Sequence record: SRR2962707_917
DNA length: 52,030 nt
Strand: one strand, 5' to 3'
Part shown: positions 13,309-49,173 of the stretch, in pieces
Layout: the number at the start of each line of letters is the position of its first letter
Numbering within the stretch: position 1 is the stretch's first letter
The notes under the pieces: generated by a model
Database searches by the model: none
What the model was told of the DNA's origin: nothing
What the model saw: only the letters and a program-made list of their open reading frames with translations
Made by a program: the position numbers and the translations under genes

Positions 13309-13555
13309 GGTCTTCTCCGGTGTATCTGTCTGGTTGTCCCAATGGATATAGCCCTGCGCCTATGCCACGCCAAGCCACCTAGCGGGCCTTGCGCTGGAAA
13401 ATCCAAATTGTGCGATTTTGGGGGGCGACTTTTTGGCGGATCCTTGCAGCCATGCGTTTTCGACTTAGTTACTCAGATGCCGCAGAGCGATTTATTGCCG
13501 TTCAGGGGCTCCGATGGTAGGAAGCCGTCAAAACTCGTTTGGTTTAGGATAGCAC

Positions 13556-14950: not shown

Positions 14951-14972
14951 TTGAACACCAGATATCATCGTG

Positions 14973-14999: not shown

Positions 15000-15116
15000 C
15001 ATGTTTGGTCGCTCAATTGCGCGAAACAAACCACGTTTTTGTCATCCAAAAGTGGCAATTTTGGTAAATTACGACATCTATAGACTCATGTGTTTTTGCG
15101 ATTGTCGGAGAGATTG

Positions 15117-19289: not shown

Positions 19290-19451
19290 GCGCGATTCCT
19301 TAGGAAAATTCTGTTTCTTTATTTTGCAAAAAAATGTTCGCCGGTTGACTTCATTTTTTAGAACTTACCATTCTTTGGCCATAGTTAGCAGCTACTTACC
19401 CTCACTATTGTTGACTGTTTTTTAGGATGTGTGACTGCATTGGTACGCAAT

Positions 19452-20312
19452 ATGTCAAATAGCTCGCCGAATGGCGTTCCACTGGTCAGCGTGATCCTAC
19501 CTGCAAACAATGAGGCCAACCTCATTGGGCCCTGCTTAAAGGCTCTGTTGGCGTCTGACTGGGGATATACGCAACCCTGCGAAGTGATCGTTGTGGCCAA
19601 TGGTTGCACAGACGATACCGCTGAGGTCGCCCGCCAATTCCGAATGGATTTCGCGCAGAAAGGTTGGCGGCTTGGGGTTCTGGATTTGCCCGAAGGCGGT
19701 AAGTTGAAGGCTCTGAATGAGGGTGACTCAACAGCAAATGGTCAAATCCGCGTTTACCTTGATGCCGACGTGATCGTGACGCCCCCGCTTATGTCGCAAA
19801 TCGCCGAAGCGCTAAGCATCGATGCGCCTAGATACGCCAGTGGCCAGGTGAAAATCTCAAAAACAAACAACTGGGCCAGTCGCGCGTATCGACGTATTTA
19901 CCAAAGGGTTCCTTTCATGACCAACGGTGTTCCCGGATGTGGTTTGTTTGCCGTCAACGCAGCAGGACGCGCCCGATGGGGGCTTTTTCCGGATATCATC
20001 TCAGACGATACATTTGTCCGTCTTAGCTTTGCTCCGTCCGAGCGCATTGGTGTTCCAGCAAGTTATGAATGGCCCATTGTTGACGGATGGTCGAATTTGG
20101 TCCGTGTCCGGCGGCGTCAGAACATTGGCGTTGATGAAGTTGGCGAAAAATTCCCGGAATTACTGATGAACGATGACAAAGTACCCTTTGGTCTTCGTAG
20201 TAAGTTAAAACTGGCTCTAACCGACCCAATCGGTTTTGCTGTCTATACAGGCGTCGCACTTTTTGTGCGTTTCACGCGCAACCGCGCAACCGGCTGGAGC
20301 CGTGGCAGATGA
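19452..20312 (+). CDS. GT2 glycosyltransferase
   Basis: VSVILPANNE, NGCTDDT, YLDAD (DxD), ISDD, VRRRQ; stop overlaps the wzx start (ATGA). Start may be GTG at 19431. Confidence 0.88.
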   Translation: MSNSSPNGVPLVSVILPANNEANLIGPCLKALLASDWGYTQPCEVIVVANGCTDDTAEVARQFRMDFAQKGWRLGVLDLPEGGKLKALNEGDSTANGQIRVYLDADVIVTPPLMSQIAEALSIDAPRYASGQVKISKTNNWASRAYRRIYQRVPFMTNGVPGCGLFAVNAAGRARWGLFPDIISDDTFVRLSFAPSERIGVPASYEWPIVDGWSNLVRVRRRQNIGVDEVGEKFPELLMNDDKVPFGLRSKLKLALTDPIGFAVYTGVALFVRFTRNRATGWSRGR

Positions 20313-21673
20313 ACCTAGTAATGCGAAAATTCAGCGGGACGTCTCTTTCCGCGCGCGTCCTACGCAGCTCTTTCTTAACCGTTGGTGGTTTTGGCTTTGG
20401 TCAAGTTCTGCGATTGGCGTCGAACCTCCTGCTAACCCGGCTACTTTTCCCGGAAGCCTTCGGAATGATGGCCTTGGTCATGGTTTTCCTTCAGGGATTG
20501 GCCATGTTTTCGGATGTTGGTGTTACGCCCGCAATTATGCAAAGCAAGCGCGGCGATGAGCCTGATTTCCTGAACACAGCCTGGACAATTCAAGTGATCC
20601 GCGGTTTTGCGTTGTGTTTTACAGCTTGCCTGTTCGCATGGCCAATGGCCACGTTTTATGGCGAGCCGCAGTTGATGTATCTGCTACCGGCAGCCAGTAT
20701 AACGCTGATTATCAACGGCTTTAACCCAACGCGGATGGACAGCGCGAACCGTCATCTAAAGCTGGGTCGCGTCACACTTTTGGAAATGGGCACCCAGTTA
20801 ACTGGCACTGTTACAGCCGTTCTTCTGGCCTGGCTCACCGGCTCTGTCTGGGCACTTGTTATCTCGGGCCTGATTTCTGCAACCGTTCATGTGATCATCA
20901 ATTCCATGTTCCTACCCGGGGAACGGAATCGGTTTTATTGGGACAAAAGCGCCGCGAATGAGCTGATCAACTTTGGTAAATGGATCTTTCTTTCAACGAT
21001 TTGCGGGTTCTTCGTCCTGCAAGGCGACAAAATTCTATTCGGGAAATACCTGCCACTTGACGCTTTTGGGGTCTATAACATCGGCTTCTTCCTCGCCTCG
21101 TTTCCAATGCTGTTAGGTGGCTTGGCGATACGGAAAGTCCTTATCCCGATCTATCGGGAATCTCCCCCCGGGGAATCGATTGAAAACTTTAAGAAGCTCC
21201 GCAAAATGCGCATGCTTGTTACAAGCTTCTTGCTGGTTCTAGTCAGTATTTTTGCTACGGTCGGCGTTTGGTTAGCAGACTTCATGTATGATAGTCGCTA
21301 TGAGATGGCAGGCGCTGTCATCGTCCTGATGGCCTGTATGCAAATCCCCCAAATCATTGTCGTCACCTATGATCAGGCGACCCTCGCAGCCGGGGACTCC
21401 AAGCCCTATTTCGTACTTGCCGCGTCCCGAGCCGTGTTTACGATTTTCTGCCTCCTCGTTGGCCTTGAAATGGGGGGGCTGTTAGGCGGAATTATCGCAC
21501 AAGGTGTCGCGGTTCTTTTGGTCTACCCCGTTGTGGTGTGGCTGGCCCGAAAATCTTCGGCTTGGGATCCCATGCATGATGCCGTCTTTTCGATTGCGGG
21601 GATCCTGATTGCATTTGGTGCGCTGACGCTTAACTGGGATCATGTCTTTGATTTGGCAAACGCCGGCTACTGA
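20309..21673 (+). CDS. wzx: Wzx-type oligosaccharide flippase
   Basis: Multi-TM protein with LTRLLFPEAFG, FSDVG, ELINFGKWIF, GDKILFGKYL...FGVYNIG, typical of the polysaccharide synthesis/export family. Confidence 0.85.
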   Translation: MNLVMRKFSGTSLSARVLRSSFLTVGGFGFGQVLRLASNLLLTRLLFPEAFGMMALVMVFLQGLAMFSDVGVTPAIMQSKRGDEPDFLNTAWTIQVIRGFALCFTACLFAWPMATFYGEPQLMYLLPAASITLIINGFNPTRMDSANRHLKLGRVTLLEMGTQLTGTVTAVLLAWLTGSVWALVISGLISATVHVIINSMFLPGERNRFYWDKSAANELINFGKWIFLSTICGFFVLQGDKILFGKYLPLDAFGVYNIGFFLASFPMLLGGLAIRKVLIPIYRESPPGESIENFKKLRKMRMLVTSFLLVLVSIFATVGVWLADFMYDSRYEMAGAVIVLMACMQIPQIIVVTYDQATLAAGDSKPYFVLAASRAVFTIFCLLVGLEMGGLLGGIIAQGVAVLLVYPVVVWLARKSSAWDPMHDAVFSIAGILIAFGALTLNWDHVFDLANAGY

Positions 21674-21861: not shown

Positions 21862-24800
21862 ATGACGTCCAATACCGAGAATCTGGCAGGCGATGATAAC
21901 GACATCGCCATTGTTGGCATGTCCTCGCATTTGCCTGGGGCAGATAGCATTCAAGCGTATTGGAAAAACCTGCGCGACGGGATTTCTTCGATTCGTAAGC
22001 TCTCAGATGAGGAGCTGATTGCCGCTGGCGAAGATCCCGGTTTGCTGCGTCATAGAAATTACGTCCCCTACGCCGCGACCCTGGACGGGTTCGAGATGTT
22101 TGACGGAGAGTTCTTTGGGTTTTCACCTAAGGAAAGTGCGATCATGGATCCCCAGCACCGTCAATTCCTTGAAACCTCATGGGAAGCGCTGGAAAACGCC
22201 GGACATACACCCGAGAGCTTTAATGGCCAGGTCGGTGTATTTGCGGGCTGCGGCATGGGCAGCTATTTTTACTTCAACATCTGTTCAAATCCGGATCTGG
22301 TTGACAACACAGGCATGTTCCTGTTGCGCCACACCGGCAATGACAAGGATTTCATGACCACCCGTCTGAGCCATGTTCTGGATTTGCACGGCCCGTCGAT
22401 CAACCTGCAAACAGCCTGTTCAACGTCCCTTGTCGCGACTCACTACGCTTGCCAATCCCTGTTGAATGGTGAGTGTGATATGGCGCTGGCCGGAGGGGTG
22501 ACAATCGAACTGCCTCATGCCCGCGGCTATGTGTTTAAAGAGAACGAAATTCTCTCTCCGGACGGCGAATGTCACGCGTTCGATCACCGAGCCGAAGGAA
22601 CCGTTTTTGGGTCCGGCGCCGGGGTCGTTGTCTTGCGTCGTTTAGCGGATGCCATCGCAGATGGCGATCATATTTGGGCGGTTATCAAGGGCACAGCCGT
22701 AAACAACGATGGTGCTGCAAAAGCAGGGTATCTTGCTCCGTCTGTCGATGGACAAGCCGACGCCATTGCAGAAGCGCAATCCGTGGCCAATGTCACGGCG
22801 GATACAATTGATTATGTTGAGTGTCATGGAACGGGAACCTATCTTGGTGACCCCATCGAAGTCGCGGCCCTGACCCAAGCCTTTCAGGAAACAACAGACG
22901 AAACAGGCTATTGCCGGATTGGCTCCGTCAAAACCAATATTGGCCACACCGATACGGCGGCCGGCGTTGCCAGTTTGATCAAAACGTCGCTGGCGTTGCA
23001 TCACAACCAAATGCCCCCGTCTCTCGGCTTCGAGAAACCGAACCCTTCGATTGACTTCGAACACTCCCCCTTTCGCGTCAACGACCGTTTGACAGACTGG
23101 GTCTCTCATAAGGGGCCACGCCGTGCGGGTGTGAATTCGCTTGGTGTCGGTGGCACGAACGCGCACGCCGTTTTGGAAGAAGCCCCCCAGCGGAGCGTTT
23201 CCGAAGAAAGTGACTGGCCCTTCCAAATTCTTACCGTGTCCGGGCGCAACAAGGGCGCATTGGATGGGAATGCCAAGCAACTCGCGGCCCATTTGCGCGC
23301 GCATCCCGAACAATCGTTGGCGGATATTGCTTTCACCCTGAAAGAAGGGCGTCGTGGGTTTGAGAAGCGCCGGGTAATCGTTGCCGAAACGCACGAAGAA
23401 GCCGCGCGTCTTTTAGAAGAAGACACGCCCCGCCGTGTGCACAGCCACACAGCTCTCAGCGCGCCAGACACTGTTTTCATGTTCCCGGGCGGCGGCGCTC
23501 AGTTCGCCGGAATGGCACGTGACTTGTACGAAACAGAACCCACTTTCGCCGAATGGATGGACCAGGGTCTTGAGATACTGGCGAAACTGGATGACCGTGA
23601 CTACCGCTCTGTTTGGTTACCCGAAGAAGGCATGTTGGATCAGGCTGACGAAGCCCTGAAAAAACCGTCGATGCAATTGCCGCTGATCATGATCGTCGAA
23701 TATGCCTTGGCCCAATTGTGGATGAGCTGGGGCGTTACGCCTGCCGCTCTGACCGGTCATTCTATGGGTGAAAACACGGCCGCTTGCGTTGCGGGTGTGA
23801 TGTCCTTCGAAGATTGTATTGGCTTGGTACACCTGCGTGGCAGCCTGTTCGATACCGTTCCTGCCGGTGGTATGTTGTCGGTCAATTTACCTGCAGATGA
23901 TCTGCGTCCCCTACTCAGCGAAGATCTTGATTTGGGCGCCGTTAATGCCCCAGAACTCTCTGTTGTTTCCGGCCCGCAATCCGCTTTGGACGACATGGAG
24001 AAATTGCTGAAGTCAAAAGATGTTGATTGCCAGCGCATCCAAATTGATATCGCGGCGCATTCTCGGATGCTGGACCCCATTCTGGAGCGGTTCCACTCTT
24101 ATCTGCAATCGATCCAGCTCAATCCGCCCCAAATTCCGCTGACGTCCAATCGCACCGGCGAAATGATGACGGACGCGCAAGCAACGGATCCCGATTACTG
24201 GGTCGCCCACCTGCGCGGCACAGTTCATTTTGCCGATGGCATCGCAACCCTTGCCAAGGACAACCGGATTTTCCTCGAAGTTGGACCGGGCAAAGCCTTG
24301 TCTGCCCTGAGTCGTCAGCACAATGATGTGAATGGTCAACAAGTGTTGGGCAGTTTGCGTCACCCCGAGGAACAGATCGAAGACGATAAGTACTTCCTTG
24401 AAACGCTCGGGCGCATCTGGGCGCTGGGAGGGTCGTTTGATTGGAGCCAGATTTGGGGCGACGCCAAACGAAACCGTGTGCCGTTGCCGACCTATGCGTT
24501 CCAGCGGGCCAAGTATTTCATTGAGCCGGGAAAAGTTCAAAACGACCTCGCCCCGCAGTTCCTGATGCGCAACGATGATGTAAGCGAATGGGGTTGGAAA
24601 CCGGTTTGGCGCCCCGGAAGCCCGATCAGTGATGTTGATGTCGTTGATGGGTTGGCCGATGCAGAACCGCAAACATGGCTGATGTTTATGGATGACGCCG
24701 GGATTGCCACCCGTTGTGCAACCAAATTGCGGGCCGCCAATCATCAGGTCATTGAAGTCCGCACAGGCGACACATTTTCTCGTGTTGGCGATACGGCCTA

Positions 24801-27800
24801 TGTCATTGCGCCGGAACGCGGTCGCGAAGGCTATGATTTACTGATCCAAGACATGCTGTCGCGCGGTTTGGTGCCCAATCGATTGGCCCATTTCTGGATG
24901 ATGACGGCAAATGAATCTCACCGCCCTGGGTCCAGCTTTTTCCACAGAATCCAGGAGCAGGGCTTCTATTCGTTGTTGTTCCTGGCGCAAGCCATCGCAG
25001 AAGAAAACCTGCCGCGGCCCCTGCAAATCACGGTTGTCACGAATGGGGCTACCCGCCTGCGTGACGAAGCCTTACCTTATCCAGCCAAATCGACAATCGC
25101 GGGCCCTGCGCGTGTTATCCCACGAGAGCTTCCAGGCGTGACTGTATCCACTTTGGATATTCAACTGCCAACATTGCCAGACGTCCATTTCTGGAAAAAA
25201 GCACAGCAGCGCGAAGCACTTGAAACCGCGCAAGACGCGCTGGCCCTCAGCGTTCTCGAAGACCTCATGGCTGAACCTGCAAACGAAATCGTCGCTCTTC
25301 GTGGCGACCGCCGGTTTACCTGTGCCATGCGCCCAACCGCGCTTAAGGCAGATGACCAAGCTCCAGAAGCGAAAGACGGCACATATCTGATAACCGGTGG
25401 GTTTGGCGGTATCGGCCTGTCATTGGCCAAGGACTTCGCGGCCAAAGGGGCCAACTTGGTCTTGATTGCGCGTCAGGATTTGCCAGACCGCCAAGTCTGG
25501 GATGAGTATCTGACCCGGCATGCACCACAGGACAGCATTTCCCAGCGTATACGCGCCGTTCGCATACTTGAGGAGGCTGGCGCGACTGTCATGGTTGGCG
25601 CAGCCGACGTCTCAAACCATGCGGCCATGAAAACAGTGGTAGACGACGCAACCAAGGCGTTTGGTCCCATCATTGGCGTAATTCACGGGGCTGGTGTTGT
25701 CGATGACGCGCCTTTGCTGACCAAATCTTCCTCCTCTATCGAAGAGGTCTTCACTCCCAAAATTCTGGGCACCGAGGTGCTGGATCAAATCTTCCCGGAT
25801 GGCTCCATCGAATGGATGGTTCTGTTCTCTTCATCTTCGACGGTAACGGCGCCTGCGGGCCAGGTCGACTACGTGGCCGCGAACGAATATCTCAACGCCT
25901 TTGCCCAGTCCCGAAAAGGCGGCAAAACCCGCGTGCTGGCGATCAACTGGGGTATTTGGAACGAAGTCGGCATGGCCGCCGAGGCCGTGGCCCAGCGCAA
26001 TGGGGATCTACCGCCAATGCCGCAAGAGCCTGCCCATGTTCCGATGCTGGAAACAGCAACCTTTGACCACAACGGCAACCGTTTGTTCAAAACCCGCTTT
26101 GACACCAATGATTGGGTAATTGATGAGCACCGCACGGCAAGAGGCGACGCGTTGTTGCCCGGAACCGGATATCTGACGCTCGCCGCCCAAGCCTTGGCGA
26201 GCCAAGGTGAACCCACCGCTTTCGAAATCCGCGACTTGAACATGTTGAGGGCCCTCTCTGTTCCCGATGGACAAGCCCGCGACGTTCAGGTTCGCCTGAC
26301 ACGCAGCGCTGAGGGCTATGGGTTCGACGTTCTTGCCGATTGTATGTTCGATGGCAAACAAGGCCACACGCTCACTGCCCAAGCCGCTTTGGCCCTTGTA
26401 CCCATGGCACAGCCCGAAAAGCTTGATCTTTCCGTAATCCGCGATCGTTGTGGCGCCCCAGAGACGGCACAACGCGATGGAAAACTCTCAACTTCACAGG
26501 AAGTGCATCTGAATTTTGGCCCACGCTGGAAAGTGTTGGACTCGCGCGCCTTAGGTCAAAACGAAGGTATCGCTGACCTTTCCCTGCCCAAAATCGCCGA
26601 AAATGACAAAGACTATTTTCTGCATCCAGCCTTGATGGACATCGCAACCGGCTGGGCCATGGAACTTATTTCCGGGTATCAACCAACCCATTTGTGGGTG
26701 CCTGTGTCCTATGCCCGCGTTCGTGTACACCAACCGGCTCCCTCACAGGCCGTCAGTTGGGTACGCAATGCAGCCGATAATGAGGCGGGGCATCAAACAG
26801 CCAGCTTCAACATTACCATTTGCGCGCCGGACGGCACCGTTTGCGTCGAGATCAGCGGTTTCACAATCCGTCGGATCGAGGATGTTGCCGCCTTGTCGAG
26901 GGCACCTCGTCTCACATTTGCAGAAGTTGAATTTGACCCGCAAACCGAGGGCACAGCACAACCGTTGTCAGCCTCTGAGGAACGCCTGCAACATAACCTG
27001 AGCCAAGGCATTTTGCCGAACGAGGGTGTGCAAGCCTTCCACAGCGCTCTGGCAACGGGCTTGCCGCAAGTTGTCGTCAGCTCGATGGAATTGGACGCGT
27101 TGAAAGCCCAGACTGCGGCGAGTACAGCGGCACAAGGGGACGTTCAGAAGTTCGACCGGCCACAGCTTGATGGCGACTATGCCGCGCCAGAGAATGATAT
27201 CGAACGCACATTGGTCGGCTTTTGGGAAGATTTGCTAGGCGTGCAGAACGTCGGCGTAGAGGACAGTTTCTTTGATCTTGGCGGGCACTCTCTGATCGCT
27301 GTGCGTCTGTTCTCGATGGTTAAGAAAGCGTATCGGATCGAATTCCCAATCTCTGTCTTGTTCGAAGCCCCCACAATCCGAAAATGTGCAGCCTTGATTG
27401 CAGAGCGGACTGGTGGCGCGACCAACACAGAAGGGGAAACCAAACCGGAAGCGCCTAAGCGTCGCTTTAAACATCTTGTGGCCATGCATGACGGTGAAGG
27501 TGGTCCTAAAACACCCTTCTTCCTTGTGGCTGGCATGTTCGGAAACGTTCTGAACTTGCGTCACTTGGCCAACCTTCTCGGATCTGACCGTCCATTTTTC
27601 GGTTTGCAAGCGCGCGGCCTCTATGGGGACGAAGCGCCTCATAATACATTGAACGAAGCGGCCGCCGACTACATTGCGGAAATGAAGCAGGTTCAGGCGC
27701 ATGGGCCTTATCTTGTTGGTGGGTTCTCTGGCGGTGGTATTACAGCCTATGAAATCGCCCGCCAACTCGAAGCCATGGGAGACGAAGTGGCCATCGTGGT

Positions 27801-28335
27801 TCTTTTGGACACACCTTTGCCGGTCCGACGACCATTGGCACGCAAAGACCGGATGATCATCCAGTTGCAAGAACTTCGTAACAAGGGTTTCACCTATCCA
27901 TTTATCTGGGCGAAAAACCGGATTGCCTGGGAAATCGAGAAACGCCGCGAAACGGTAGAGCAAACCGAAGCACCCCATCAGTTCCACAATTCAGAGATCG
28001 AAGCCGCCTTCCTTGAGGCCGTTGGTCACTATGAGGTGAAACCATGGGACGGTCGTCTTGTTCTGTATCGTCCACCTTTGATTGGCAAATGGTCGGTCTC
28101 GAACGGGCGCAAAGTGAACAGCGAACGCGCTTATGTGCTGGATGACAATGATTGGGGTCAATACGTGCCACATGTCGAAGTGCACGAAGTTCCGGGCGAT
28201 CATGACAGCATGGTTCTGGAACCCAACGTGCGTGTGTTGGCGAGCTTGATGAAAGAAGCCATCATTGGCGCTGAGGCGGTCATCGATGGCAAGGGCGAAG
28301 TCGTTTCGTTCCCCGGAAAGCGAGCCGCAGAATGA
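21862..28335 (+). CDS. Type I polyketide synthase KS-AT-KR(DH inserted)-ACP-TE
   Basis: KS QTACSTS/HGTGT/NIGH; AT GHSMG; KR TGGFGGIG and GQVDYVAAN; DH HRTARGDALLP and HPALMD; ACP LGGHSL; TE GFSGG and GDH. Confidence 0.93.
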   Translation: MTSNTENLAGDDNDIAIVGMSSHLPGADSIQAYWKNLRDGISSIRKLSDEELIAAGEDPGLLRHRNYVPYAATLDGFEMFDGEFFGFSPKESAIMDPQHRQFLETSWEALENAGHTPESFNGQVGVFAGCGMGSYFYFNICSNPDLVDNTGMFLLRHTGNDKDFMTTRLSHVLDLHGPSINLQTACSTSLVATHYACQSLLNGECDMALAGGVTIELPHARGYVFKENEILSPDGECHAFDHRAEGTVFGSGAGVVVLRRLADAIADGDHIWAVIKGTAVNNDGAAKAGYLAPSVDGQADAIAEAQSVANVTADTIDYVECHGTGTYLGDPIEVAALTQAFQETTDETGYCRIGSVKTNIGHTDTAAGVASLIKTSLALHHNQMPPSLGFEKPNPSIDFEHSPFRVNDRLTDWVSHKGPRRAGVNSLGVGGTNAHAVLEEAPQRSVSEESDWPFQILTVSGRNKGALDGNAKQLAAHLRAHPEQSLADIAFTLKEGRRGFEKRRVIVAETHEEAARLLEEDTPRRVHSHTALSAPDTVFMFPGGGAQFAGMARDLYETEPTFAEWMDQGLEILAKLDDRDYRSVWLPEEGMLDQADEALKKPSMQLPLIMIVEYALAQLWMSWGVTPAALTGHSMGENTAACVAGVMSFEDCIGLVHLRGSLFDTVPAGGMLSVNLPADDLRPLLSEDLDLGAVNAPELSVVSGPQSALDDMEKLLKSKDVDCQRIQIDIAAHSRMLDPILERFHSYLQSIQLNPPQIPLTSNRTGEMMTDAQATDPDYWVAHLRGTVHFADGIATLAKDNRIFLEVGPGKALSALSRQHNDVNGQQVLGSLRHPEEQIEDDKYFLETLGRIWALGGSFDWSQIWGDAKRNRVPLPTYAFQRAKYFIEPGKVQNDLAPQFLMRNDDVSEWGWKPVWRPGSPISDVDVVDGLADAEPQTWLMFMDDAGIATRCATKLRAANHQVIEVRTGDTFSRVGDTAYVIAPERGREGYDLLIQDMLSRGLVPNRLAHFWMMTANESHRPGSSFFHRIQEQGFYSLLFLAQAIAEENLPRPLQITVVTNGATRLRDEALPYPAKSTIAGPARVIPRELPGVTVSTLDIQLPTLPDVHFWKKAQQREALETAQDALALSVLEDLMAEPANEIVALRGDRRFTCAMRPTALKADDQAPEAKDGTYLITGGFGGIGLSLAKDFAAKGANLVLIARQDLPDRQVWDEYLTRHAPQDSISQRIRAVRILEEAGATVMVGAADVSNHAAMKTVVDDATKAFGPIIGVIHGAGVVDDAPLLTKSSSSIEEVFTPKILGTEVLDQIFPDGSIEWMVLFSSSSTVTAPAGQVDYVAANEYLNAFAQSRKGGKTRVLAINWGIWNEVGMAAEAVAQRNGDLPPMPQEPAHVPMLETATFDHNGNRLFKTRFDTNDWVIDEHRTARGDALLPGTGYLTLAAQALASQGEPTAFEIRDLNMLRALSVPDGQARDVQVRLTRSAEGYGFDVLADCMFDGKQGHTLTAQAALALVPMAQPEKLDLSVIRDRCGAPETAQRDGKLSTSQEVHLNFGPRWKVLDSRALGQNEGIADLSLPKIAENDKDYFLHPALMDIATGWAMELISGYQPTHLWVPVSYARVRVHQPAPSQAVSWVRNAADNEAGHQTASFNITICAPDGTVCVEISGFTIRRIEDVAALSRAPRLTFAEVEFDPQTEGTAQPLSASEERLQHNLSQGILPNEGVQAFHSALATGLPQVVVSSMELDALKAQTAASTAAQGDVQKFDRPQLDGDYAAPENDIERTLVGFWEDLLGVQNVGVEDSFFDLGGHSLIAVRLFSMVKKAYRIEFPISVLFEAPTIRKCAALIAERTGGATNTEGETKPEAPKRRFKHLVAMHDGEGGPKTPFFLVAGMFGNVLNLRHLANLLGSDRPFFGLQARGLYGDEAPHNTLNEAAADYIAEMKQVQAHGPYLVGGFSGGGITAYEIARQLEAMGDEVAIVVLLDTPLPVRRPLARKDRMIIQLQELRNKGFTYPFIWAKNRIAWEIEKRRETVEQTEAPHQFHNSEIEAAFLEAVGHYEVKPWDGRLVLYRPPLIGKWSVSNGRKVNSERAYVLDDNDWGQYVPHVEVHEVPGDHDSMVLEPNVRVLASLMKEAIIGAEAVIDGKGEVVSFPGKRAAE

Positions 28336-29357
28336 CCACGGATCAACCCAGTATTCTGACCATCATCCTGAACTATAAAACGCCAGATATGACGTTAAAG
28401 TCAGCACGGTCGGCCGCTCAGGCGATGCGTGATCTCAATGGGGAAATCACGATAGTAGACAATGACTCTCAGGATGGTTCCTTTGAAGCCATTGAAGCTG
28501 GGTTAGAGGCTCCCGACTGGCCCGAAGGGGTGGCGGTGCGTGTCATTCAGTCGGCCAAAAATGGTGGATTTGGCGCTGGGAACAATGTTGGTATTCGGGC
28601 CGGGTTGTCGGATGGCACAAAACCCGACTTTGTCTACATTCTGAACTCAGATGCCTTTCCGGCACCCGATGCCATTCAGTGTCTGCTGAACTACCTGCAA
28701 GCGCACCCAAAAGTCGGGTTTGCGGGCAGCTATATCCACGGCGAAGACCAACATGATCACATCACCCTGTTCCGCTTTCCCTCTGCCCTGTCAGAGCTTG
28801 AAAGCGCAGCGCGGTTTGGCCCGGTTTCCAGACTGCTGAAAAACCACATTGTTCACCTGCCTGTTCCTGAACAATCTCAGCGGGTCGATTGGCTTGCCGG
28901 GGCCTCTATGATGATGCGCACGTCGGTCCTGGATGAAATTGGGTTATTCGACGAAACCTTCTTTTTGTATTTCGAAGAAACTGACCTAAGCTTGCGCGCC
29001 GCGCGCGCCGGGCACGAAACACATTATGTCCGTGAAAGCCACGTTGAGCATATCGGATCCGTGTCGACCGGTATGAAGAAATGGCAGCGCATTCCAGGCT
29101 ACTGGCTGGAGAGTCGCTGGCACTATTATACAAAAAACCACGGCCGCGCATACGCATGTGCGGTCACACTTGCACATATGACAGGGGGGCTGTTGTGGCG
29201 CATACGCAGAGCCCTTCAGAGCAAACCCCAAGCAGACCCCGATTATTTTCTGTGGGATATGCTGGTGCACGATCTTAAAGCGATGTTCCGGCCTTTACCC
29301 GGAAAACGCGCCGCTGCCGACTGTGTAGCGCTTGAAGTAAAAGCGGAGAAGTATTGA
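28332..29357 (+). CDS. GT2 glycosyltransferase (WbbL/rhamnosyltransferase-like)
   Basis: IILNYKT, VDNDSQD, NGGFGAGNN, LNSD, FDETFFLYFEETD; overlaps both the PKS stop and the NRPS start. Confidence 0.9.
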   Translation: MTTDQPSILTIILNYKTPDMTLKSARSAAQAMRDLNGEITIVDNDSQDGSFEAIEAGLEAPDWPEGVAVRVIQSAKNGGFGAGNNVGIRAGLSDGTKPDFVYILNSDAFPAPDAIQCLLNYLQAHPKVGFAGSYIHGEDQHDHITLFRFPSALSELESAARFGPVSRLLKNHIVHLPVPEQSQRVDWLAGASMMMRTSVLDEIGLFDETFFLYFEETDLSLRAARAGHETHYVRESHVEHIGSVSTGMKKWQRIPGYWLESRWHYYTKNHGRAYACAVTLAHMTGGLLWRIRRALQSKPQADPDYFLWDMLVHDLKAMFRPLPGKRAAADCVALEVKAEKY

Positions 29358-32300
29358 TGGCCTTGTTTTCCTCAGTTGTTATCGGAAATGAATCTCTTTT
29401 GGTTCAATGCAGTGAAAAGCTGCTGGCGCGCGGGCATTCGATTTCTGCGGTCGTCACCCAGAATCCTGACATCCGCAAGTGGGCAGAGACCAAGGGTCTA
29501 CCTGTCATTGAGCAAGACAAAGGCCAAGAAGCCGCATTGTCTGCGTTGACCTTTGATTGGCTGCTCAGCATCGCAAATCTGGCGATCATTCCGCAAAACG
29601 TCCTGAATATGGCCAAGCAAGGCGCCGTGAACTTCCACGACGGTCCATTGCCCAAACACGCAGGTCTGAATGCGCCGGTCTGGGCTTTGCTTGAGGGCGA
29701 GACTGAACATGGCATCACATGGCATCTGATCGAAGGGGGGGTGGACGAAGGAGACATCCTTGCCCAGCGCCTGTTCCCGGTAACCTCAACGGATACAGCC
29801 TTGACGCTGAACACCAAGTGTTACGAAGCCGCGATGGACAGCTTTGGTGATTTGATGGCCCAGCTGGAAACTGGGGCACCGTTGCGCGAGGCACAAGACC
29901 TGACCAAACGCAGCTATCACGCATTGGCCGCACGCCCAACTGCCGGGGGCCTGTTGGACTTTTCGCGCCCCGCAGTCGACTTGGAACGTCTGGTGCGCGC
30001 CTTGGATCATGGCCCTTACTGGAACCCACTTTGCGCGGCAAAGTTCAGCGTCAATGGGGCGCTTTGGTTGGTTGGCCATGCCAAGCTAACAGAAAGCCAC
30101 GCCGCCCCCGGTAGCGTCATCGAAGCAACCGACAAACATCTTACCGTCGCTTGCGGGGAACATGCACTGGTCCTTACAGACATCCGCAGCATTTCCGGTA
30201 CCGATGTTGCCCCATCGGATATTGTCAAATCTGGCGGTGTTTTGACCCTGATGACCGCAGAGGACATCGCTAAGATTGACGACGCCATCGCGAGCACGGC
30301 TGCAGGAACGAATAAGTTCCGTAAGGCCCTCTCAAAGCTTACTCCAGCCGAAATATCTGGGGTGACAAACGCATCCGCGAGTATTGAATCCCGGACACTC
30401 AATTTGGAAGGGTCAGAGACTGTTCTGGCTGAAATCGCTTTGTGGGTGGCGCAAACCGCGCAATCAGATCTTTGCGACATCGCTTATTCCAACGCTGCAG
30501 TTAAACAGCTCTCTGAGACCGGACATGTCGCGCCATGGAGCCCATTTCGGATCAACGCCAAAGGAAGCTTTGATGGCCTTGTCAAAGCGGTCGATCAGGC
30601 AATCGCCTCAGCGCGCAAAATCCCCGGATTTGCAACGGATCTGATTGCACGCGATCCTGCTCTTGAACAGCCAACCCAACCTCATATTGGCCTATCCGAA
30701 GGTGCAGGCCCAATCGCCGGTTGCGTGTTGACTGTCGAACTTGGTGACACCCCTGCGCTGCATTTTGATAGTGGACGGATTTCCGCCGCCCATGCCGAAC
30801 TGTTGGCAGCGCGGCTTGAGCTCTTGGCGAAAACAGACAACAAAACAGTCTCTGTTGTGCCTGAATTGTCCAGCACAGAGCGTGATCTGGTTCTGAACTC
30901 ATGGAACAAGACCGACACCGATTATGACCGCGCGCTTACCATGCACCGCGCCTTTGAAGCGCAGGTTGCCAAAACGCCAAATGCACCAGCTTTGGTGTTT
31001 GAAAACACGACCCTGACCTATGCCGACTTGAACGCACGGGCCAACCGTGTTGCCAATGTCTTGCAACAGATGGGCGTTGTACCGGGCAAAGTCGTGGGCC
31101 TGTGCACCAAACGATCGCTGGACCTTTTGGTCGGCGCATTGGCCATTTTGAAGGCTGGCGGCGCTTATCTTCCTATGGATCCTGCCTACCCCGCCGATCG
31201 TCTGGCGCACTTCATCAAAGACAGCGGTGCGCCCGTCATCATCACGCAATCTGCCCTTGTCCCGACATTACCGCAGCACGACGCGCAGGTGCTTGAAATC
31301 GACACCGACCCGCGCATTGCAGCCGCACCAGAGAGCAACCTCGACGACACAAGCAACCGCGATGACCTCGCTTATTTAATCTACACGTCCGGTTCCACCG
31401 GGCTGCCCAAGGGCGTCATGATTGAACATGGTAATGTCATCAATTTCTACGTTGGTATGGATGACCGGGTGTCCCATGACCCAGCGGGCACATGGCTGGC
31501 TGTTACCAGCCTGAGCTTCGACATTTCGGTCCTCGAACTCTTCTACGCCACAGCACGCGGCTTCAAGGTAGTGATTTCGTCAGACGAAGATCGCACAATG
31601 ATCTCTAAGGGCCCGATGCCCATGTCCGACCGTGGCATGCAATTCTCGCTTTATTACTGGGGCAATGATGACGGCGCAGGCCGTGACAAATATCGCCTGC
31701 TGTTGGAAGGCGCTCAGTTCGCTGACAAGAACGGATTTTGCGCCGTTTGGACTCCTGAACGCCACTTCCACGCGTTTGGCGGCCCTTACCCGAACCCATC
31801 AGTGACAGGCGCCGCAGTTGCTTCGATCACTCGCAATATTGGTGTGCGTGGCGGCAGTGTGGTCGCACCTCTGCACCACCCTGCGCGGATCGCCGAAGAA
31901 TGGGCGGTCATCGACAATCTGACAGACGGCAAAGCCGGAATGGCCATTGCGAGTGGCTGGCAACCGGATGACTTTGTCTTGCGTCCTGAAAACACACCAC
32001 CGGAAAACAAATCCGCCATGATCGAAAGCATCAAAGTGCTTCGTAAGCTCTGGGAAGGAGACGCCGTCCCCTTCCCACGCAAAGATGGCACCATGCATGA
32101 AGTGGTGACGCAACCACGCCCTGTGTCCAAAAAGTTGCCCGTTTGGGTGACAACAGCCGGGAACCCAGAAACCTGGCGCGAAGCCGGTAAACTTGGGTGC
32201 AACGTCCTGACTCACCTGTTGGGCCAGTCGGTTGAAGAAGTTGAAGAAAAGATCAAACTCTATCATGAGGCGTTGCGGCAGGCTGGTCATGATCCAAAGG

Positions 32301-33949
32301 ATTTCACAGTCTCGCTGATGCTACACACCTGTTTGGCAGATACACGAGACAACGCCCGCGAAATTGCCCGTGAACCGATGAAAGACTATCTGCGTTCGGC
32401 GGCTGGATTGATCAAGCAATATGCGTGGGCTTTCCCTGCCTTCAAACGCCCAGAAGGGGTCAAAGACGCTTTCCAGCTGGATTTGGGTAGCTTGGACACA
32501 TCAGAGCTTGAAGAGATTCTCGACTTTGCCTTTGAACGTTACTTCAACGACAGCGGTCTTTTCGGCACGATGGAAGACGCTTTGGCACGCACCGAACAGC
32601 TTAAGCGTATTGGCGTCGATGAAATCGCCTGCCTGATCGATTACGGCATCGCGCCGGATCAGGTTATGGAGGGGCTGAAGCCTTTGGCCCAAGTCGTCAA
32701 ACAAGCCAACATCGCCCCAGAACTCGACGAAGACGATTTCTCAATCGCAGCGCAAATCATTCGGCACGACGTCACTCACCTGCAATGCACGCCGTCTATG
32801 GCGCGGATGATTGCGATGAACGACGAGGCCCGCTTTGCTCTGGGTCGCGTGAAACATTTGATGCTGGGCGGAGAGCCCCTTCCCGGTGCTTTGGTCGAGG
32901 AATTCGCACAAATCACAACCGCCGGGCTTGAGAACATGTACGGACCGACCGAGACGACGATTTGGTCTTCGACCGAGACGGCCAACAAAACCGACTCTGT
33001 GGTAAACATCGGGACACCCATCGCAAATACACAGCTCTATGTTCTGGATGAGACCCAACAGCCTGTGGCCGTGGGTGTTCCAGGCGAGCTTTGGATCGGT
33101 GGCGACGGTGTTACACGAGGATATTGGCAGCGCGAAGAACTTACTGCTGAGCGGTTTGTCCCCAACCCATTCCACAAGGGGCGGATGTATCGCACCGGTG
33201 ACTTGGTCCGCCAGCGCGCGGATGGCCGGATCGATTTTATTGGCCGCGTCGATCATCAGGTGAAAATGCGCGGATACCGGATTGAGCTTGGCGAAATCGA
33301 AGCTGCAATCGAAGCGACGAACGGCATCACCCAAGCCGTTGTCGTTGCCCGTGAAGATACGCCCGGCGACATGCGATTGGTTGGCTATTACACAGCAGAA
33401 AGTCAAATAGACGAAGCCGCCATGAAGGTCGAAATGGCGAAGGGCTTGCCTGATTTCATGGTTCCAACGCGGTTCATGAAGCTAAGCTCCTTCCCGCTGA
33501 CGCCAAACAAAAAGGTCGATCGCAACGCCCTACCCGCGCCGATTGCCAAAGCGCCTGCGCCCAAAAAGGCGATTATTGCCCCGGTTGCAACAGCCAGCGC
33601 CTCTGGCGATTTGCAAACGCAAGTTGCTCAGATTTGGGAATCTGTCCTGGGTGTCCAAGGGATCAACCCAACCGACAACTTCTTTGAGTTAGGTGGTCAT
33701 TCCTTGCTGGCTGTGCAGGCGCATCGCTCTATTCGTGACACGCTGGGTGCGAAAGGTCTGTCGATCACAGATGTCTTCCGCTTCCCAACGCTTGAAGCCT
33801 TGGCAAATCGGGTTTCCGCTTTGGTTGGTGCCGATACTGCACCGTCGGTGCCGGCACAGAAACCAGCAGCACCGCAAAATGAGCGAGCACAATCCAGAAC
33901 GGACGCTATGGCGCGCCGTCGGGAAATGCGCGCACGGCGTCGGGCCTAA
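29357..33949 (+). CDS. NRPS-like loading protein: formyltransferase - C remnant - A domain interrupted by a luciferase-like monooxygenase - PCP
   Basis: Formyltransferase NFHDGPLP...VDEGDI; A3 YTSGSTGLPKG, A4 FDIS, LLM insert (WTPERHFHAFGG, HHPARIAEEW, SGWQPDDF), A5 NMYGPTE, A7 YRTGD, A8 GRVDHQVKMRGYRIELGEIE, A10 PNKKVDR; PCP LGGHSL. TTG at 29354 is an alternative start. Confidence 0.92.
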   Translation: MALFSSVVIGNESLLVQCSEKLLARGHSISAVVTQNPDIRKWAETKGLPVIEQDKGQEAALSALTFDWLLSIANLAIIPQNVLNMAKQGAVNFHDGPLPKHAGLNAPVWALLEGETEHGITWHLIEGGVDEGDILAQRLFPVTSTDTALTLNTKCYEAAMDSFGDLMAQLETGAPLREAQDLTKRSYHALAARPTAGGLLDFSRPAVDLERLVRALDHGPYWNPLCAAKFSVNGALWLVGHAKLTESHAAPGSVIEATDKHLTVACGEHALVLTDIRSISGTDVAPSDIVKSGGVLTLMTAEDIAKIDDAIASTAAGTNKFRKALSKLTPAEISGVTNASASIESRTLNLEGSETVLAEIALWVAQTAQSDLCDIAYSNAAVKQLSETGHVAPWSPFRINAKGSFDGLVKAVDQAIASARKIPGFATDLIARDPALEQPTQPHIGLSEGAGPIAGCVLTVELGDTPALHFDSGRISAAHAELLAARLELLAKTDNKTVSVVPELSSTERDLVLNSWNKTDTDYDRALTMHRAFEAQVAKTPNAPALVFENTTLTYADLNARANRVANVLQQMGVVPGKVVGLCTKRSLDLLVGALAILKAGGAYLPMDPAYPADRLAHFIKDSGAPVIITQSALVPTLPQHDAQVLEIDTDPRIAAAPESNLDDTSNRDDLAYLIYTSGSTGLPKGVMIEHGNVINFYVGMDDRVSHDPAGTWLAVTSLSFDISVLELFYATARGFKVVISSDEDRTMISKGPMPMSDRGMQFSLYYWGNDDGAGRDKYRLLLEGAQFADKNGFCAVWTPERHFHAFGGPYPNPSVTGAAVASITRNIGVRGGSVVAPLHHPARIAEEWAVIDNLTDGKAGMAIASGWQPDDFVLRPENTPPENKSAMIESIKVLRKLWEGDAVPFPRKDGTMHEVVTQPRPVSKKLPVWVTTAGNPETWREAGKLGCNVLTHLLGQSVEEVEEKIKLYHEALRQAGHDPKDFTVSLMLHTCLADTRDNAREIAREPMKDYLRSAAGLIKQYAWAFPAFKRPEGVKDAFQLDLGSLDTSELEEILDFAFERYFNDSGLFGTMEDALARTEQLKRIGVDEIACLIDYGIAPDQVMEGLKPLAQVVKQANIAPELDEDDFSIAAQIIRHDVTHLQCTPSMARMIAMNDEARFALGRVKHLMLGGEPLPGALVEEFAQITTAGLENMYGPTETTIWSSTETANKTDSVVNIGTPIANTQLYVLDETQQPVAVGVPGELWIGGDGVTRGYWQREELTAERFVPNPFHKGRMYRTGDLVRQRADGRIDFIGRVDHQVKMRGYRIELGEIEAAIEATNGITQAVVVAREDTPGDMRLVGYYTAESQIDEAAMKVEMAKGLPDFMVPTRFMKLSSFPLTPNKKVDRNALPAPIAKAPAPKKAIIAPVATASASGDLQTQVAQIWESVLGVQGINPTDNFFELGGHSLLAVQAHRSIRDTLGAKGLSITDVFRFPTLEALANRVSALVGADTAPSVPAQKPAAPQNERAQSRTDAMARRREMRARRRA

Positions 33950-33953
33950 GACT

Positions 33954-34622
33954 ATGTCAGTAAGCGGGCTCAATACATTGCTAGACGATATCCGAGAGGA
34001 ACTTCCTTCTTGGCTGTCAATTGCCGTTTCTGATCCGACCGATCCGGGAAAACACGACCTTTTTCCGACAGAGCAGGCTGCCGTTGCCCGGGCAATCGTA
34101 CGACGGCGGGATGAATTCGCGGCTGGTCGACGGGCGGCGCGTAACGCGCTCACAGCGATGAACAAGCCTGCCGGCGAAATTCCTATGGCCGAGGACAGAT
34201 CTCCGGTTTGGCCTAATGGCGTCACGGGGAGCATAACTCACACGCATTCCGCATGTGTTGCGGTGCTGGCCTCGACCGACAACGTCAAATGTATTGGCGT
34301 AGACCTTGAAGAACACTTGCCGATTGAAAACGAACTCATACCCAGCATTTGCACCGAGAATGAGTTGAATATTCTGAATGACGAGGCGCCGTCGATCGCT
34401 GCGCGCCGGATCTTCTGTGGCAAGGAAGCGGCGTATAAAACCCAGTATCAGATCAGTCATACGTTGATTGGGTTTGAAGCTTTGGAGCTTTGTCGCAAGT
34501 CGTCCTCAAAAATGGTGTTCAAGTTCACCAGGAGTGTCGCCCCGTTTCGGAAAGATGACACAATGACGATTCGACAATGGGCCGATCATGGCGTGATTTT
34601 GTCAGTCGCCTGGATGCACTAG
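33954..34622 (+). CDS. 4'-phosphopantetheinyl transferase (EntD/Sfp-like)
   Basis: RRDEFAAGR, PVWPNGVTGSITH, IGVDLE, FCGKEAAYK; ATG 4 nt after the NRPS stop. Confidence 0.92.
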   Translation: MSVSGLNTLLDDIREELPSWLSIAVSDPTDPGKHDLFPTEQAAVARAIVRRRDEFAAGRRAARNALTAMNKPAGEIPMAEDRSPVWPNGVTGSITHTHSACVAVLASTDNVKCIGVDLEEHLPIENELIPSICTENELNILNDEAPSIAARRIFCGKEAAYKTQYQISHTLIGFEALELCRKSSSKMVFKFTRSVAPFRKDDTMTIRQWADHGVILSVAWMH

Positions 34623-34892: not shown

Positions 34893-36209
34893 ATGAACCA
34901 GTTCCAATCGCTTGGCGAGGTTATCTCTGCCTTTAAGCGACGTTTTTTACTAGTCTTAGTCATCATCGCTATTGGTAGCGCCATCTCTGTCTACTTTGCA
35001 TTAAACCAGACTCAACGTTTTGCTGCGACCGCAGTGGTGCAAATTGAAGGCGCAACCGTCTCGAATGCAACGGCGACTCAAAGTCGGTTTGGCAGCGAGG
35101 CGGCGATGCAAATTCGGCTTATAGAACAACGTTTGATGTCGCGCGACAACTTGGCTGCGGTGATTGAGAAATTCAATCTATACTCTGCAAACACGGAACT
35201 AAGCATCAACGAAAAAGTTGTTCTGCTGCGCGAAGAAGTTCGTGTTAGTCCAATTTTGAACCCAGCTCAGGCTTGGCAAGCGAACGCGACGCCATCGGGG
35301 CTCACCATCAATGTTGAAATGGGCGATGCCCAGAGCGCCGCTGATGTCGCCAATGACTTTCTTTACACTGTCATTGATTCCTCCCGCGAACGCGGTGCCG
35401 AGCGTACCGAGAGCACATTGGAATTCTATGCCGCAGAAGAATCTCGAATGAGCGCTGAGATTGAGGAACTGTCGAACCAAATTGCTCAATTCAAGATCGA
35501 GAATGCGGATTACCTTCCTGCCGGACAAACGTCATTGCGGACTCAACTGGGTAACTTGCACAACACAGAGCTGTCCCTTGAGCAGCAAATCGTTTCGCTT
35601 CAAAGCGGTTCCTCTCGTCAACGCCAGGATGTTGTGGATCAACAAGTCAGCCTGCTCGAAGATCAGAAGACATTGATCACATCCCGCATCGCCAATATTG
35701 AAAACGCCTTGCTTGAAGCCCCCGAAGTTGAAAAAGAGTTTGACGCTCTGACACGCGATCTGACGCGGCTTCAGGATCAGTACTCGGTTATCACACGCCG
35801 CAAAGACGACGCTGAACTTGATTTCACGTTAGAGAACAATCAAAAAGCGGGTAAATTTGAAATCCTGGAAACAGCGATTGTACCAGAGCACCCAATTTCC
35901 AGAAGCCCGAAAGTTGTTGCAGCAATGGGCGTTGTCGCGACTATTCTGGTAGCCATTACGGCAGTTTTGGGCCTTGAAATGACCAACCCAGTCATCCGCA
36001 CGGCCGCTCAGTTGGAACGAGCAATGGGCGTGCAGCCCGTCATCTCAATTCCGCATGTTCATACCAAAAAGGACAAGCGTAAAGGCTTGACCAAGCGCTT
36101 GCTTGGACTGGTCGTTCTTTTGACTGGTTTAGGAGTTGCCGCGCGGTATCTTCAAGATTGGATTGGCAATCTGAACATTATGCCAAGAAGACTAAACGAG
36201 CAGCCATAA
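34893..36209 (+). CDS. Polysaccharide co-polymerase (GumC / Wzc periplasmic part, no kinase domain)
   Basis: TM helices near both termini, long coiled-coil periplasmic region, ILETAIVPEHPISRSP proline motif before TM2. Confidence 0.85.
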   Translation: MNQFQSLGEVISAFKRRFLLVLVIIAIGSAISVYFALNQTQRFAATAVVQIEGATVSNATATQSRFGSEAAMQIRLIEQRLMSRDNLAAVIEKFNLYSANTELSINEKVVLLREEVRVSPILNPAQAWQANATPSGLTINVEMGDAQSAADVANDFLYTVIDSSRERGAERTESTLEFYAAEESRMSAEIEELSNQIAQFKIENADYLPAGQTSLRTQLGNLHNTELSLEQQIVSLQSGSSRQRQDVVDQQVSLLEDQKTLITSRIANIENALLEAPEVEKEFDALTRDLTRLQDQYSVITRRKDDAELDFTLENNQKAGKFEILETAIVPEHPISRSPKVVAAMGVVATILVAITAVLGLEMTNPVIRTAAQLERAMGVQPVISIPHVHTKKDKRKGLTKRLLGLVVLLTGLGVAARYLQDWIGNLNIMPRRLNEQP

Positions 36210-48799: not shown

Positions 48800-49173
48800 A
48801 CGGGTTACAAACACTCCACTCACATTCACCACCCAATCGGGCGTCTTTAATGCTTGTTAAAGATAAAAAAGGGCGAAGTCGTGGAGTCTATGTAACAAAT
48901 CCGCGACCAGGCCACATTTCAGGGGATTTTACTCATCCAAATTTTTGCCTGTGCGGCTTTTCCTATCACTTATCGCACAGGACATCTGAGGTTTTGGCAG
49001 TGCACTCGCGGTCATGACGATCGCCAGCCAGCCCAACCCAAATTCTTAGGGCTCGACGTCATTCTACCCAGTCTTTGGAGGGGAAACATAGGGTTCACGT
49101 CTCTCTTCTTGCCGGAGCGCAAGTTTTCTGCAACATTGATACAGCATTGATACACCTAAAGGCGGCCTCTCTT

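Follow-up and report, generated by a model that had tools for sequence, protein, structure and literature searches.

A predicted glycine-loading synthetase with a built-in formyltransferase and flavin oxygenase in a conserved PKS-GT2-NRPS-PPTase operon of Roseobacter-group bacteria

Bacteria of the Roseobacter group rank with the most abundant heterotrophs of the sea, and the recognition of a hybrid biosynthetic cluster in their lineage is reportedly due to Martens et al. 2007. The gene analyzed here encodes a nonribosomal peptide synthetase (NRPS) in a 52,030-nt stretch of DNA from record SRR2962707_917 (the whole stretch is called the window below) and is the loading (starter) enzyme of a conserved operon of this group, composed of genes for a polyketide synthase (PKS), a family 2 glycosyltransferase (GT2), the NRPS and a phosphopantetheinyl transferase (PPTase). 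A hybrid cluster with these four components was found in 28 of 57 Roseobacter-lineage genomes, its product being uncharacterised, with Leisingera and Ruegeria isolates reported among the carriers (PMC4337385), and was described with the gene order PKS, glycosyltransferase, NRPS, PPTase (PMC5014874); a 2023 study reported a hybrid NRPS-like/type I PKS class in 18 of 37 species, with a Roseibaca domitiana copy very unlike MIBiG entries (PMC10584327). The product is still called unknown in these papers of 2015, 2016 and 2023, and neither domain anatomy nor product is given in the cluster descriptions of the first two. A paper on polyunsaturated fatty acid-type hybrid lipids (PMC13291983) contains no mention of the cluster, and our literature searches found no account of the combination of loader parts in one module, of the half condensation domain described below, of an assay or of a product, and nothing under the family names TIGR04020/Atu3671. 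In the window (21862-34622), the same four genes are adjacent and in the order given by PMC5014874; they are orthologous to those of the Roseobacter cluster, no difference was found, and the operon is thus a member of it.

Every part of the enzyme has a precedent, namely the MtaG/MelG insertion, the OzmO/CongA loader and the MupA/PuwE oxygenase, and the cluster itself is a published orphan. In LgrA of linear gramicidin synthesis, an N-terminal formyltransferase (F) domain formylates the carrier-bound first amino acid (PMC4504003). The window NRPS shares with LgrA the N-terminal F domain of an initiation module, but LgrA joins F straight to the adenylation (A) domain, whereas the window enzyme has the C-terminal lobe of a condensation (C) domain between the two. 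The initiation module of LgrA loads valine. Closer in the order of assembly are OzmO and CongA of the oxazolomycin and conglobatin pathways (a similar loader is known for rhizopodin), in which F, a glycine A domain and a peptidyl carrier protein (PCP) pass formyl-glycine to a PKS (PMC4504003). The likeness is that of an F-A(Gly)-PCP loader feeding a ketosynthase (KS); unlike the window enzyme, these loaders lack an A-domain oxygenase and are partnered with an OzmP/CongE cyclodehydratase, an ATP-dependent type for which Pfam gave no match among the 32 long open reading frames (ORFs, 150 aa or more) of the window, no direct OzmP sequence search having been made.

Built-in oxygenases are known from a different set of enzymes. 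MtaG and MelG (myxothiazol, melithiazol) carry a flavin monooxygenase within a glycine A domain, between motifs a4 and a5; they end their chains, the glycine alpha-carbon being hydroxylated and the resulting carbinolamide cleaving into the freed peptide amide and a glyoxyl thioester, which the following thioesterase (TE) clears (PMC10204066). The window NRPS instead starts a line, with an F domain and half a C domain upstream, and hands over to a KS without a TE of its own. SolF module 4 (solanimycin) likewise has a glycine A domain with a built-in flavin monooxygenase, but its insertion lies between a8 and a9, the module serves chain elongation and has a complete C domain, and its alpha-hydroxyglycine is retained through further elongation and stays in the product (PMC10204066). 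MupA and the oxygenase domain of PuwE (PuwE Ox) belong to TIGR04020, the family of the inserted oxygenase of the window, and alpha-hydroxylate a carrier-bound thioester, PuwE Ox being the predicted source of the 2-hydroxy group in puwainaphycins (PMC4219810); they stand alone or form part of a PKS module, and their substrates are ketide chains, whereas the luciferase-like monooxygenase (LLM, or MOx in the domain formula) of the window lies inside an A domain.

The NRPS frame at 29354-33949 (+) comprises 1531 aa, and the ATG at 29357, which shares a TGATG with the stop codon of the GT2 gene, is its likely start. In Pfam searches the protein matched Formyl_trans_N (aa 54-159, E 1.6e-18), Formyl_trans_C (199-291), AMP-binding, split into two parts (of which aa 534-748 cover profile positions 1-243 of 384 and come first), Bac_luciferase (771-1089, E 4.4e-45), AMP-binding_C (1314-1387) and PP-binding (1423-1487), and no thioesterase domain was found. 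The NCBIfam model TIGR01733 (amino acid adenylation) also matched in two stretches (434.8 bits vs. a cut-off of 317.4), and LgrA is the best overall PDB match. Of 121 sequences (the query and its 120 best homologues, referred to below as orthologues), 120 have the PCP serine of GGHS(1450)LL, the remaining row having a gap there. Judged from its sequence, the protein has all of F, C-lobe, A[MOx] and PCP in an intact state, with a glycine-type pocket, a complete F triad, a strongly conserved FMN-type oxygenase and a carrier serine, i.e., a predicted one-module peptide synthetase that would load glycine and that has a formyltransferase and a flavin oxygenase built in. An assembly or fusion artefact as the origin of the insertion was ruled out, because the same open frame is seen in more than 100 independent genomes.

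The LLM (aa 764-1114, nt 31643-32695) is placed between the A4 motif FDIS, starting at aa 722 (nt 31517), and the A5 motif NMYGPTE, starting at aa 1194 (nt 32933), the site being that of MtaG/MelG (PMC10204066). It leaves the pocket residues D723, I724 and L727 before the insert and Q1144, M1170, G1172, M1195, I1203, W1204 and K1387 after it, which, located by motif anchors and not by alignment to GrsA, give the specificity code DILQMGMIWK. In a 2025 survey of 2051 A domains, the four glycine domains with a built-in monooxygenase (MOX) that were examined all have the code DILQLGMIWK, Leu or Met is listed at position 299 for glycine-derived codes and all MOX modules are stated to be in glycine domains (PMC12283262). 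Nine of the ten positions are identical between the window code and that of the surveyed MOX-bearing domains. A preliminary description of this DNA, made from the letters alone, had placed the LLM between A4 and A5 at these same positions, read the same pocket code, called it glycine-type and named MtaG/MelG as the precedent for such an insertion in a glycine domain; all four statements agree with the present results, and the precedent is in print (PMC10204066).

Among the 121 orthologues, the codes found are DILQMGMIWK (46), DILQFGMIWK (35), DILQYGMIWK (35) and DILQLGMIWK (5), with no others. Position 299 (residue 1170, nt 32861-32863) is the only code position that varies in this set, and the residues at it are all bulky. 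A broader comparison was made with 64 sequences of 1100-1750 aa (63 representatives at 50% identity plus the query), 46 of them LLM-bearing and 18 uninterrupted. On this sequence evidence the LLM insertion is tied to glycine, because the full code DILQxG(M/L/V)(I/V)WK is present in 40 of the 46 LLM-bearing sequences vs. 6 of the 18 uninterrupted ones. The other six LLM-bearing sequences comprise two with truncated DILQ codes, two aligned only through DIL, one with an unrelated code and one unaligned; the uninterrupted group divides into 6 sequences with DILQ-type codes and 12 with other codes. The same set of sequences indicates that the insertion arose inside a wider family of F/C-lobe/A/PCP loaders.

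The N-terminal part of the protein (residues 41-292) can be aligned over its full length with Met-tRNA formyltransferases (93.3 and 81.4 bits) and, at about 74 bits, with ArnA. Residues N93, H95 and D131 correspond to N-x-H and D in Fmt, the Met-tRNA formyltransferase of E. coli, and are invariant in all 121 orthologues, which substantiates the preliminary statement that the catalytic residues are kept; in the 50%-identity set the triad is present in 44 of 46 LLM-bearing and 17 of 18 uninterrupted sequences. By analogy with known F domains, we infer that this one formylates a carrier-bound amino acid. The following stretch, residues 292-533, gave no meaningful Pfam match (only HMA at E = 1) and is the least conserved part of the NRPS (0.28-0.41 mean identity to the query), still being alignable in 63 of the 79 loci with a match. 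Residues 285-545 were modelled with AlphaFold2 from 42 sequences, which gave a mean predicted local distance difference test score (pLDDT) of 89.9, and the matches listed by Foldseek are all condensation-family domains or NRPS modules containing one. With VIA-align, model residues of about 18-226 (protein 302-510) superpose on the C-terminal lobe of C domains (SrfA-C 181-440, EntF 175-438 and TomBC 272-525) with Z of 14.2-15.0 and a root-mean-square deviation of 3.0-3.8 Å over 177-197 residues. The HHxxxD motif is absent from the whole NRPS protein. It is because of this fold match and the absence of HHxxxD that the architecture is read as F, C-lobe remnant, A[MOx] and PCP; according to the model, the formyltransferase occupies the place of the catalytic donor lobe of a C domain, and the junction of F with half a C domain would represent a natural case of a tailoring domain replacing that lobe.

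The inserted oxygenase matches TIGR04020 (MupA/Atu3671 LLM) over model positions 1-340 of 341, with 470.9 bits vs. a cut-off of 244.45. Among solved structures it is by far closest to 6ket, the oxygenase domain of PuwE (323.9 bits, against 84.6 bits for the next PDB match), and it is the most conserved region of the NRPS (0.80 mean identity to the query). MupA hydroxylates an acyl carrier protein (ACP)-bound beta-keto thioester in vitro with Fre, flavin mononucleotide (FMN) and NADH, the beta-hydroxy form not being accepted, and its cluster is without a flavin reductase (PMC10952193). Flavin reductase families gave no Pfam match in the 32 long ORFs of the window either, in line with the preliminary description, which had seen none in the locus. 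In the genomes of all three cluster-carrying relatives considered, 2-3 Flavin_Reduct proteins are encoded elsewhere. A cluster devoid of a flavin reductase is therefore ordinary for the TIGR04020 oxygenase class, given that the MupA cluster also has none.

The four genes of the operon are tightly packed, with ATGA at the PKS/GT2 junction, TGATG at the GT2/NRPS junction and a 4-nt gap before the PPTase gene, whose ATG stands 5 nt past the NRPS stop. All PKS motifs inspected are intact: Cys/His/His in the KS, GHSMG in the acyltransferase (AT), YxxxN in the ketoreductase (KR), GGHSL in the carrier and GxSxG in the TE. The starter role of the NRPS, as proposed in the preliminary description, follows from the lack of a catalytic C lobe (the C-lobe remnant alone stands between F and A), from a PKS with an intact KS at its front and a TE at its end, from the overlap of the genes and from the existence of known formyl-glycine loaders that feed a KS. 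The TE of the PKS gave weak matches to numerous TE domains, that of Pks13 among them (about 49 bits), which is not diagnostic, and the GT2 protein gave no PDB sequence match at E 0.001. Two peculiarities of the PKS were noted as well: KR precedes the dehydratase (DH) in the order KS-AT-KR-DH, vs. the usual DH-KR, and the carrier bears the PCP-like motif GGHSL in place of the usual ACP motif.

The system is broadly distributed. Genes for relatives of the NRPS occur in at least 456 genomic stretches, and neighbour counts were taken from 71 kept loci longer than 20 kb, of which 71 have PKS, GT2 and NRPS and 64 have the PPTase. An NRPS that is 55-74% identical (best segment) and nearly full length occurs in 80 loci from Salipiger, Pelagimonas, Shimia, Roseovarius and other genera, and, among 401 species genomes sampled from the family, 136 have a TIGR04020 match above the cut-off, nearly always in frames of about 1480-1900 aa. 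All 120 homologues listed carry LLM, Formyl_trans_N and AMP-binding, at 57-98% identity. The closest listed NRPS match (98%) is the sole close one, the nearest named relatives (Salipiger, Tropicibacter) being 66-69% identical, and the source organism appears to come from a poorly sampled lineage. A query consisting of F and the C-lobe yielded 1460 matches at E <= 1e-30 among 1.84 billion representatives; of the 48 listed representatives of at least 1400 aa, 39 have the oxygenase between the A pieces and 9 do not, and uninterrupted F-A-PCP relatives of about 1160-1230 aa are also among those listed. Beyond the family, the same four-gene operon is found in Hydrogenophaga (Comamonadaceae) at 57-59% identity (Hydrogenophaga / Betaproteobacteria loci L037, L049, L050, L052, L054, L060, L062, L067 and L071). 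In a tree of the linker region whose root is not established, the nine Hydrogenophaga sequences form one clade (100/100), which falls inside a 98/97 split together with Roseovarius, Gemmobacter, Seohaeicola and Shimia; this pattern fits a single inter-class transfer, in either direction. More distant named members come from Erythrobacter and Sandaracinus amylolyticus.

The features of the window and the frequencies of neighbouring genes are collected in Table 1. The operon is enclosed by a polysaccharide locus extending over 15-48 kb of the window (Pfam), with genes for GT4 and GT2 glycosyltransferases, a Wzx-type flippase, Wzz/GNVR, a P-loop kinase-like protein, GFO/epimerases, WecG and a hexapeptide transferase. 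The order of neighbours is kept in most of the 18 loci inspected and differs in Hydrogenophaga and a few Rhodobacterales (e.g., L041, L056); the Hydrogenophaga flanks are different but consist again of glycan genes (WecG, GT4, GT2, Bac_transf). Soon after the PPTase gene, two of the three Hydrogenophaga loci examined encode a second synthetase of about 2000 aa (FAAL-like AMP-binding, PCP, C, A, PCP, TE; L050:18122-24046 and L074:16604-22612), and L050 also has a Bac_transf initiating sugar transferase at some distance downstream of it. A 999-aa protein with RTX calcium-binding repeats is encoded at the edge of the polysaccharide locus (15090-18089, +) and has a relative in 8 of the 71 loci. 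Within the locus, a 491-aa ORF without a Pfam match (47354-48832, -) has relatives in 8 of 71 loci and could be a polymerase or ligase. Further upstream, 13556-14950 (+) encodes S-adenosylhomocysteine hydrolase (486.7 bits) and overlaps an opposite-strand ORF without a match (13544-14968, -) that is probably spurious.

Table 1. Features of the NRPS gene, its operon and its surroundings, with coordinates in the window where available, and occurrence in related loci
Feature	Position (nt)	Strand	Basis	Occurrence in related loci
NRPS loading enzyme: F, C-lobe, A[MOx], PCP	29357..33949	+	Domain and family profile searches; homologues	
Formyltransferase, both subdomains, Fmt/ArnA-like; N93 (29630), H95 (29636), D131 (29744)	29357..30229	+	Pfam, PDB matches	
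C-terminal lobe of a condensation domain; N-lobe with HHxxxDG absent	30257..30880	+	AlphaFold2 model, Foldseek, VIA	
Adenylation domain, N-terminal piece (A1-A4; FDIS at 31517)	30953..31597	+	Pfam AMP-binding positions 1-243; aligned to LgrA A domains	
FMN-dependent luciferase-like monooxygenase (MOx) insert	31643..32695	+	TIGR04020, 470.9 bits	
Adenylation domain, C-terminal piece (A5-A10; NMYGPTE at 32933; K1387)	32711..33514	+	Pfam, motifs	
PCP, GGHS(1450)LL	33620..33814	+	Pfam PP-binding	
Single-module type I PKS: KS-AT-KR-DH-carrier-TE	21862..28335	+	Pfam; motifs	71/71 loci >20 kb
GT2 glycosyltransferase, translationally coupled to both neighbours	28332..29357	+	Pfam GT2 families	71/71
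Sfp-type phosphopantetheinyl transferase	33954..34622	+	Pfam 4PPT_N + ACPS	64/71
Upstream polysaccharide genes: GT4 (-), GT2 (+), Wzx-type flippase (+)	18093..21673	mixed	Pfam	
Wzz/GNVR chain-length-determinant-like gene directly downstream	34893..36209	+	Pfam, weak, under gathering score	
Wzx neighbour				52/71 (>50% coverage)
Upstream GT2 neighbour				53/71 (>50% coverage)
Upstream GT4 neighbour				50/71 (>50% coverage)
Wzz neighbour				52/71
Downstream GT4 neighbour				50/71
Downstream GT2 neighbour				44/71

Combining these data, we give roughly an even chance to the following chain, taken as a whole from loading to glycosylation. First, the PPTase would prime the carriers; second, the A domain would load glycine onto the PCP; third, the F domain would N-formylate glycyl-S-PCP from formyl-tetrahydrofolate, as in LgrA, OzmO and CongA; fourth, the leftover C-lobe would act as a scaffold beside the A domain, a role usually played by a full C domain. 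Fifth, the inserted oxygenase, with FMNH2 from a reductase encoded elsewhere, would place a hydroxyl on the alpha-carbon of glycine in the N-acylated thioester, in the way of MtaG/MelG and SolF, and sixth, the resulting N-formyl-alpha-hydroxyglycyl unit would be retained and handed to the KS. The KS-bound unit would then undergo one malonate extension, reduction, dehydration and release by the TE, and the coupled GT2 would join the released compound to a sugar, by which it would end on, or prime, the Wzx/Wzz-type surface polysaccharide of the genes that flank the operon.

Several points weigh against this scheme. The pocket positions were located via motif anchors with GrsA numbering, and the pocket of LgrA module 2, a solved domain assigned to glycine, matches among the positions read only at D and I before the insert and at I of position 330, so that this comparison lends no support to the glycine call. 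The F domain is closer to Fmt and ArnA than to the proven NRPS F domain of LgrA, which aligns with the formyltransferase region at only 36-38 bits. All steps after the priming of the carriers rest on homology and gene context, because literature searches gave no biochemical data for any member of the cluster. The polysaccharide link is one of co-location only: a Wzx gene is absent within the flanks of 19 of the 71 loci, and an initiating sugar-phosphate transferase was not seen by Pfam among the 32 long ORFs of the window. Finally, MupA requires a beta-keto thioester (PMC10952193), and glycyl-S-PCP has none.

Fate of the carbinolamide is where the main rival explanation departs from the scheme, and we regard this rival as unlikely, though deserving of serious attention. 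It would have N-formyl-alpha-hydroxyglycyl-S-PCP collapse, in the manner of MtaG, into formamide and glyoxylyl-S-PCP, with the formyl group taking the place of a peptide chain, to be discarded afterwards, and the two-carbon glyoxylyl thioester acting as the PKS starter. The hydroxylation and cleavage established for MtaG/MelG (PMC10204066), the identical insertion site and the nearly identical code all speak for such a course, and so does the lack of a TE in the NRPS itself, whatever remains on the PCP having to pass to the KS. Nevertheless, alpha-hydroxyglycine persists through later elongation in SolF (PMC10204066), formyl-tetrahydrofolate would be spent on a group to be discarded although the F triad is invariant, and a glyoxylyl starter would presumably lead, after KR and DH, to a very reactive 4-oxo product. 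The preliminary description had proposed a chemistry distinct from that of MtaG; its anatomy and the starter status stand, and the chemistry may be distinct or may match that of MtaG, as the hydroxylated formyl-glycine could be kept or could collapse in exactly that manner. Added to it here are the identity of the operon with the published Roseobacter cluster, the existence of F-A(Gly)-PCP loaders that deliver to a PKS, the half C domain and the ordinary nature of a reductase-free locus.

Quite improbable, in our estimate, is an oxygenase that acts in trans on a PKS-bound beta-keto intermediate and hydroxylates C2 of the ketide, like MupA, and not glycine. MupA hydroxylates only an ACP-bound beta-keto thioester (PMC10952193), the closest solved relative, PuwE Ox, comes from a PKS context, and the PKS carrier has the PCP-like GGHSL; against this, the insertion is tied to the glycine pocket (40/46 vs. 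6/18), MOX is always in glycine domains according to the survey (PMC12283262), and the oxygenase is fused beside its own PCP. Indeed, since the insert is tied to the glycine pocket and the surveyed MOX modules are glycine-only, glycine itself can be argued to be the substrate. Formation of an oxazole, as in the oxazolomycin and conglobatin pathways, has in our view very little chance: F-A(Gly)-PCP loaders that feed a KS do yield oxazoles there (PMC4504003), by extension of formyl-glycine and cyclodehydration to a 5-substituted oxazole, which would reduce the oxygenase to an accessory, but those clusters have the OzmP/CongE cyclodehydratase beside the loader (PMC4504003), none is seen among the 32 long ORFs scanned, the four contiguous core genes leave no space for one, and oxazole formation needs no oxygenase. 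The least credible alternative is that F or LLM, or both, are inactive relics in an enzyme that merely loads glycine, for which nothing direct speaks apart from the distance of the F domain from that of LgrA, and against which stand the LLM as the best conserved part (0.80), the F triad invariant in 121/121 and an architecture retained across Rhodobacterales, Comamonadaceae, Erythrobacter and Sandaracinus.

Overall, the preferred scheme, with formylated and alpha-hydroxylated glycine retained as the PKS starter, yields testable predictions: glycine as the amino acid activated, formyl-tetrahydrofolate as the formyl donor, an alpha-hydroxylation that depends on FMNH2 and takes place on the PCP, and a single extension with malonate. 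As for its purpose, we propose tentatively, as a possibility more apt to fail than to hold, that the operon serves specifically to build a substituent or primer of a glycan and does not make an antibiotic or siderophore; a four-carbon, N-formylated, oxygenated amino-acyl unit would be made, its hydroxyl, contributed by the oxygenase or the KR, would be glycosylated by the GT2, and the conjugate would be exported on a Wzx/Wzz surface polysaccharide. About one in three of the species sampled from the family has the operon, its product is unknown in print, and its conserved polysaccharide-locus setting points to surface glycans, and not culture supernatants, as the place to seek that product. If this proposal is true, a third or more of Roseobacter-group species would bear an NRPS-PKS product on the cell surface.

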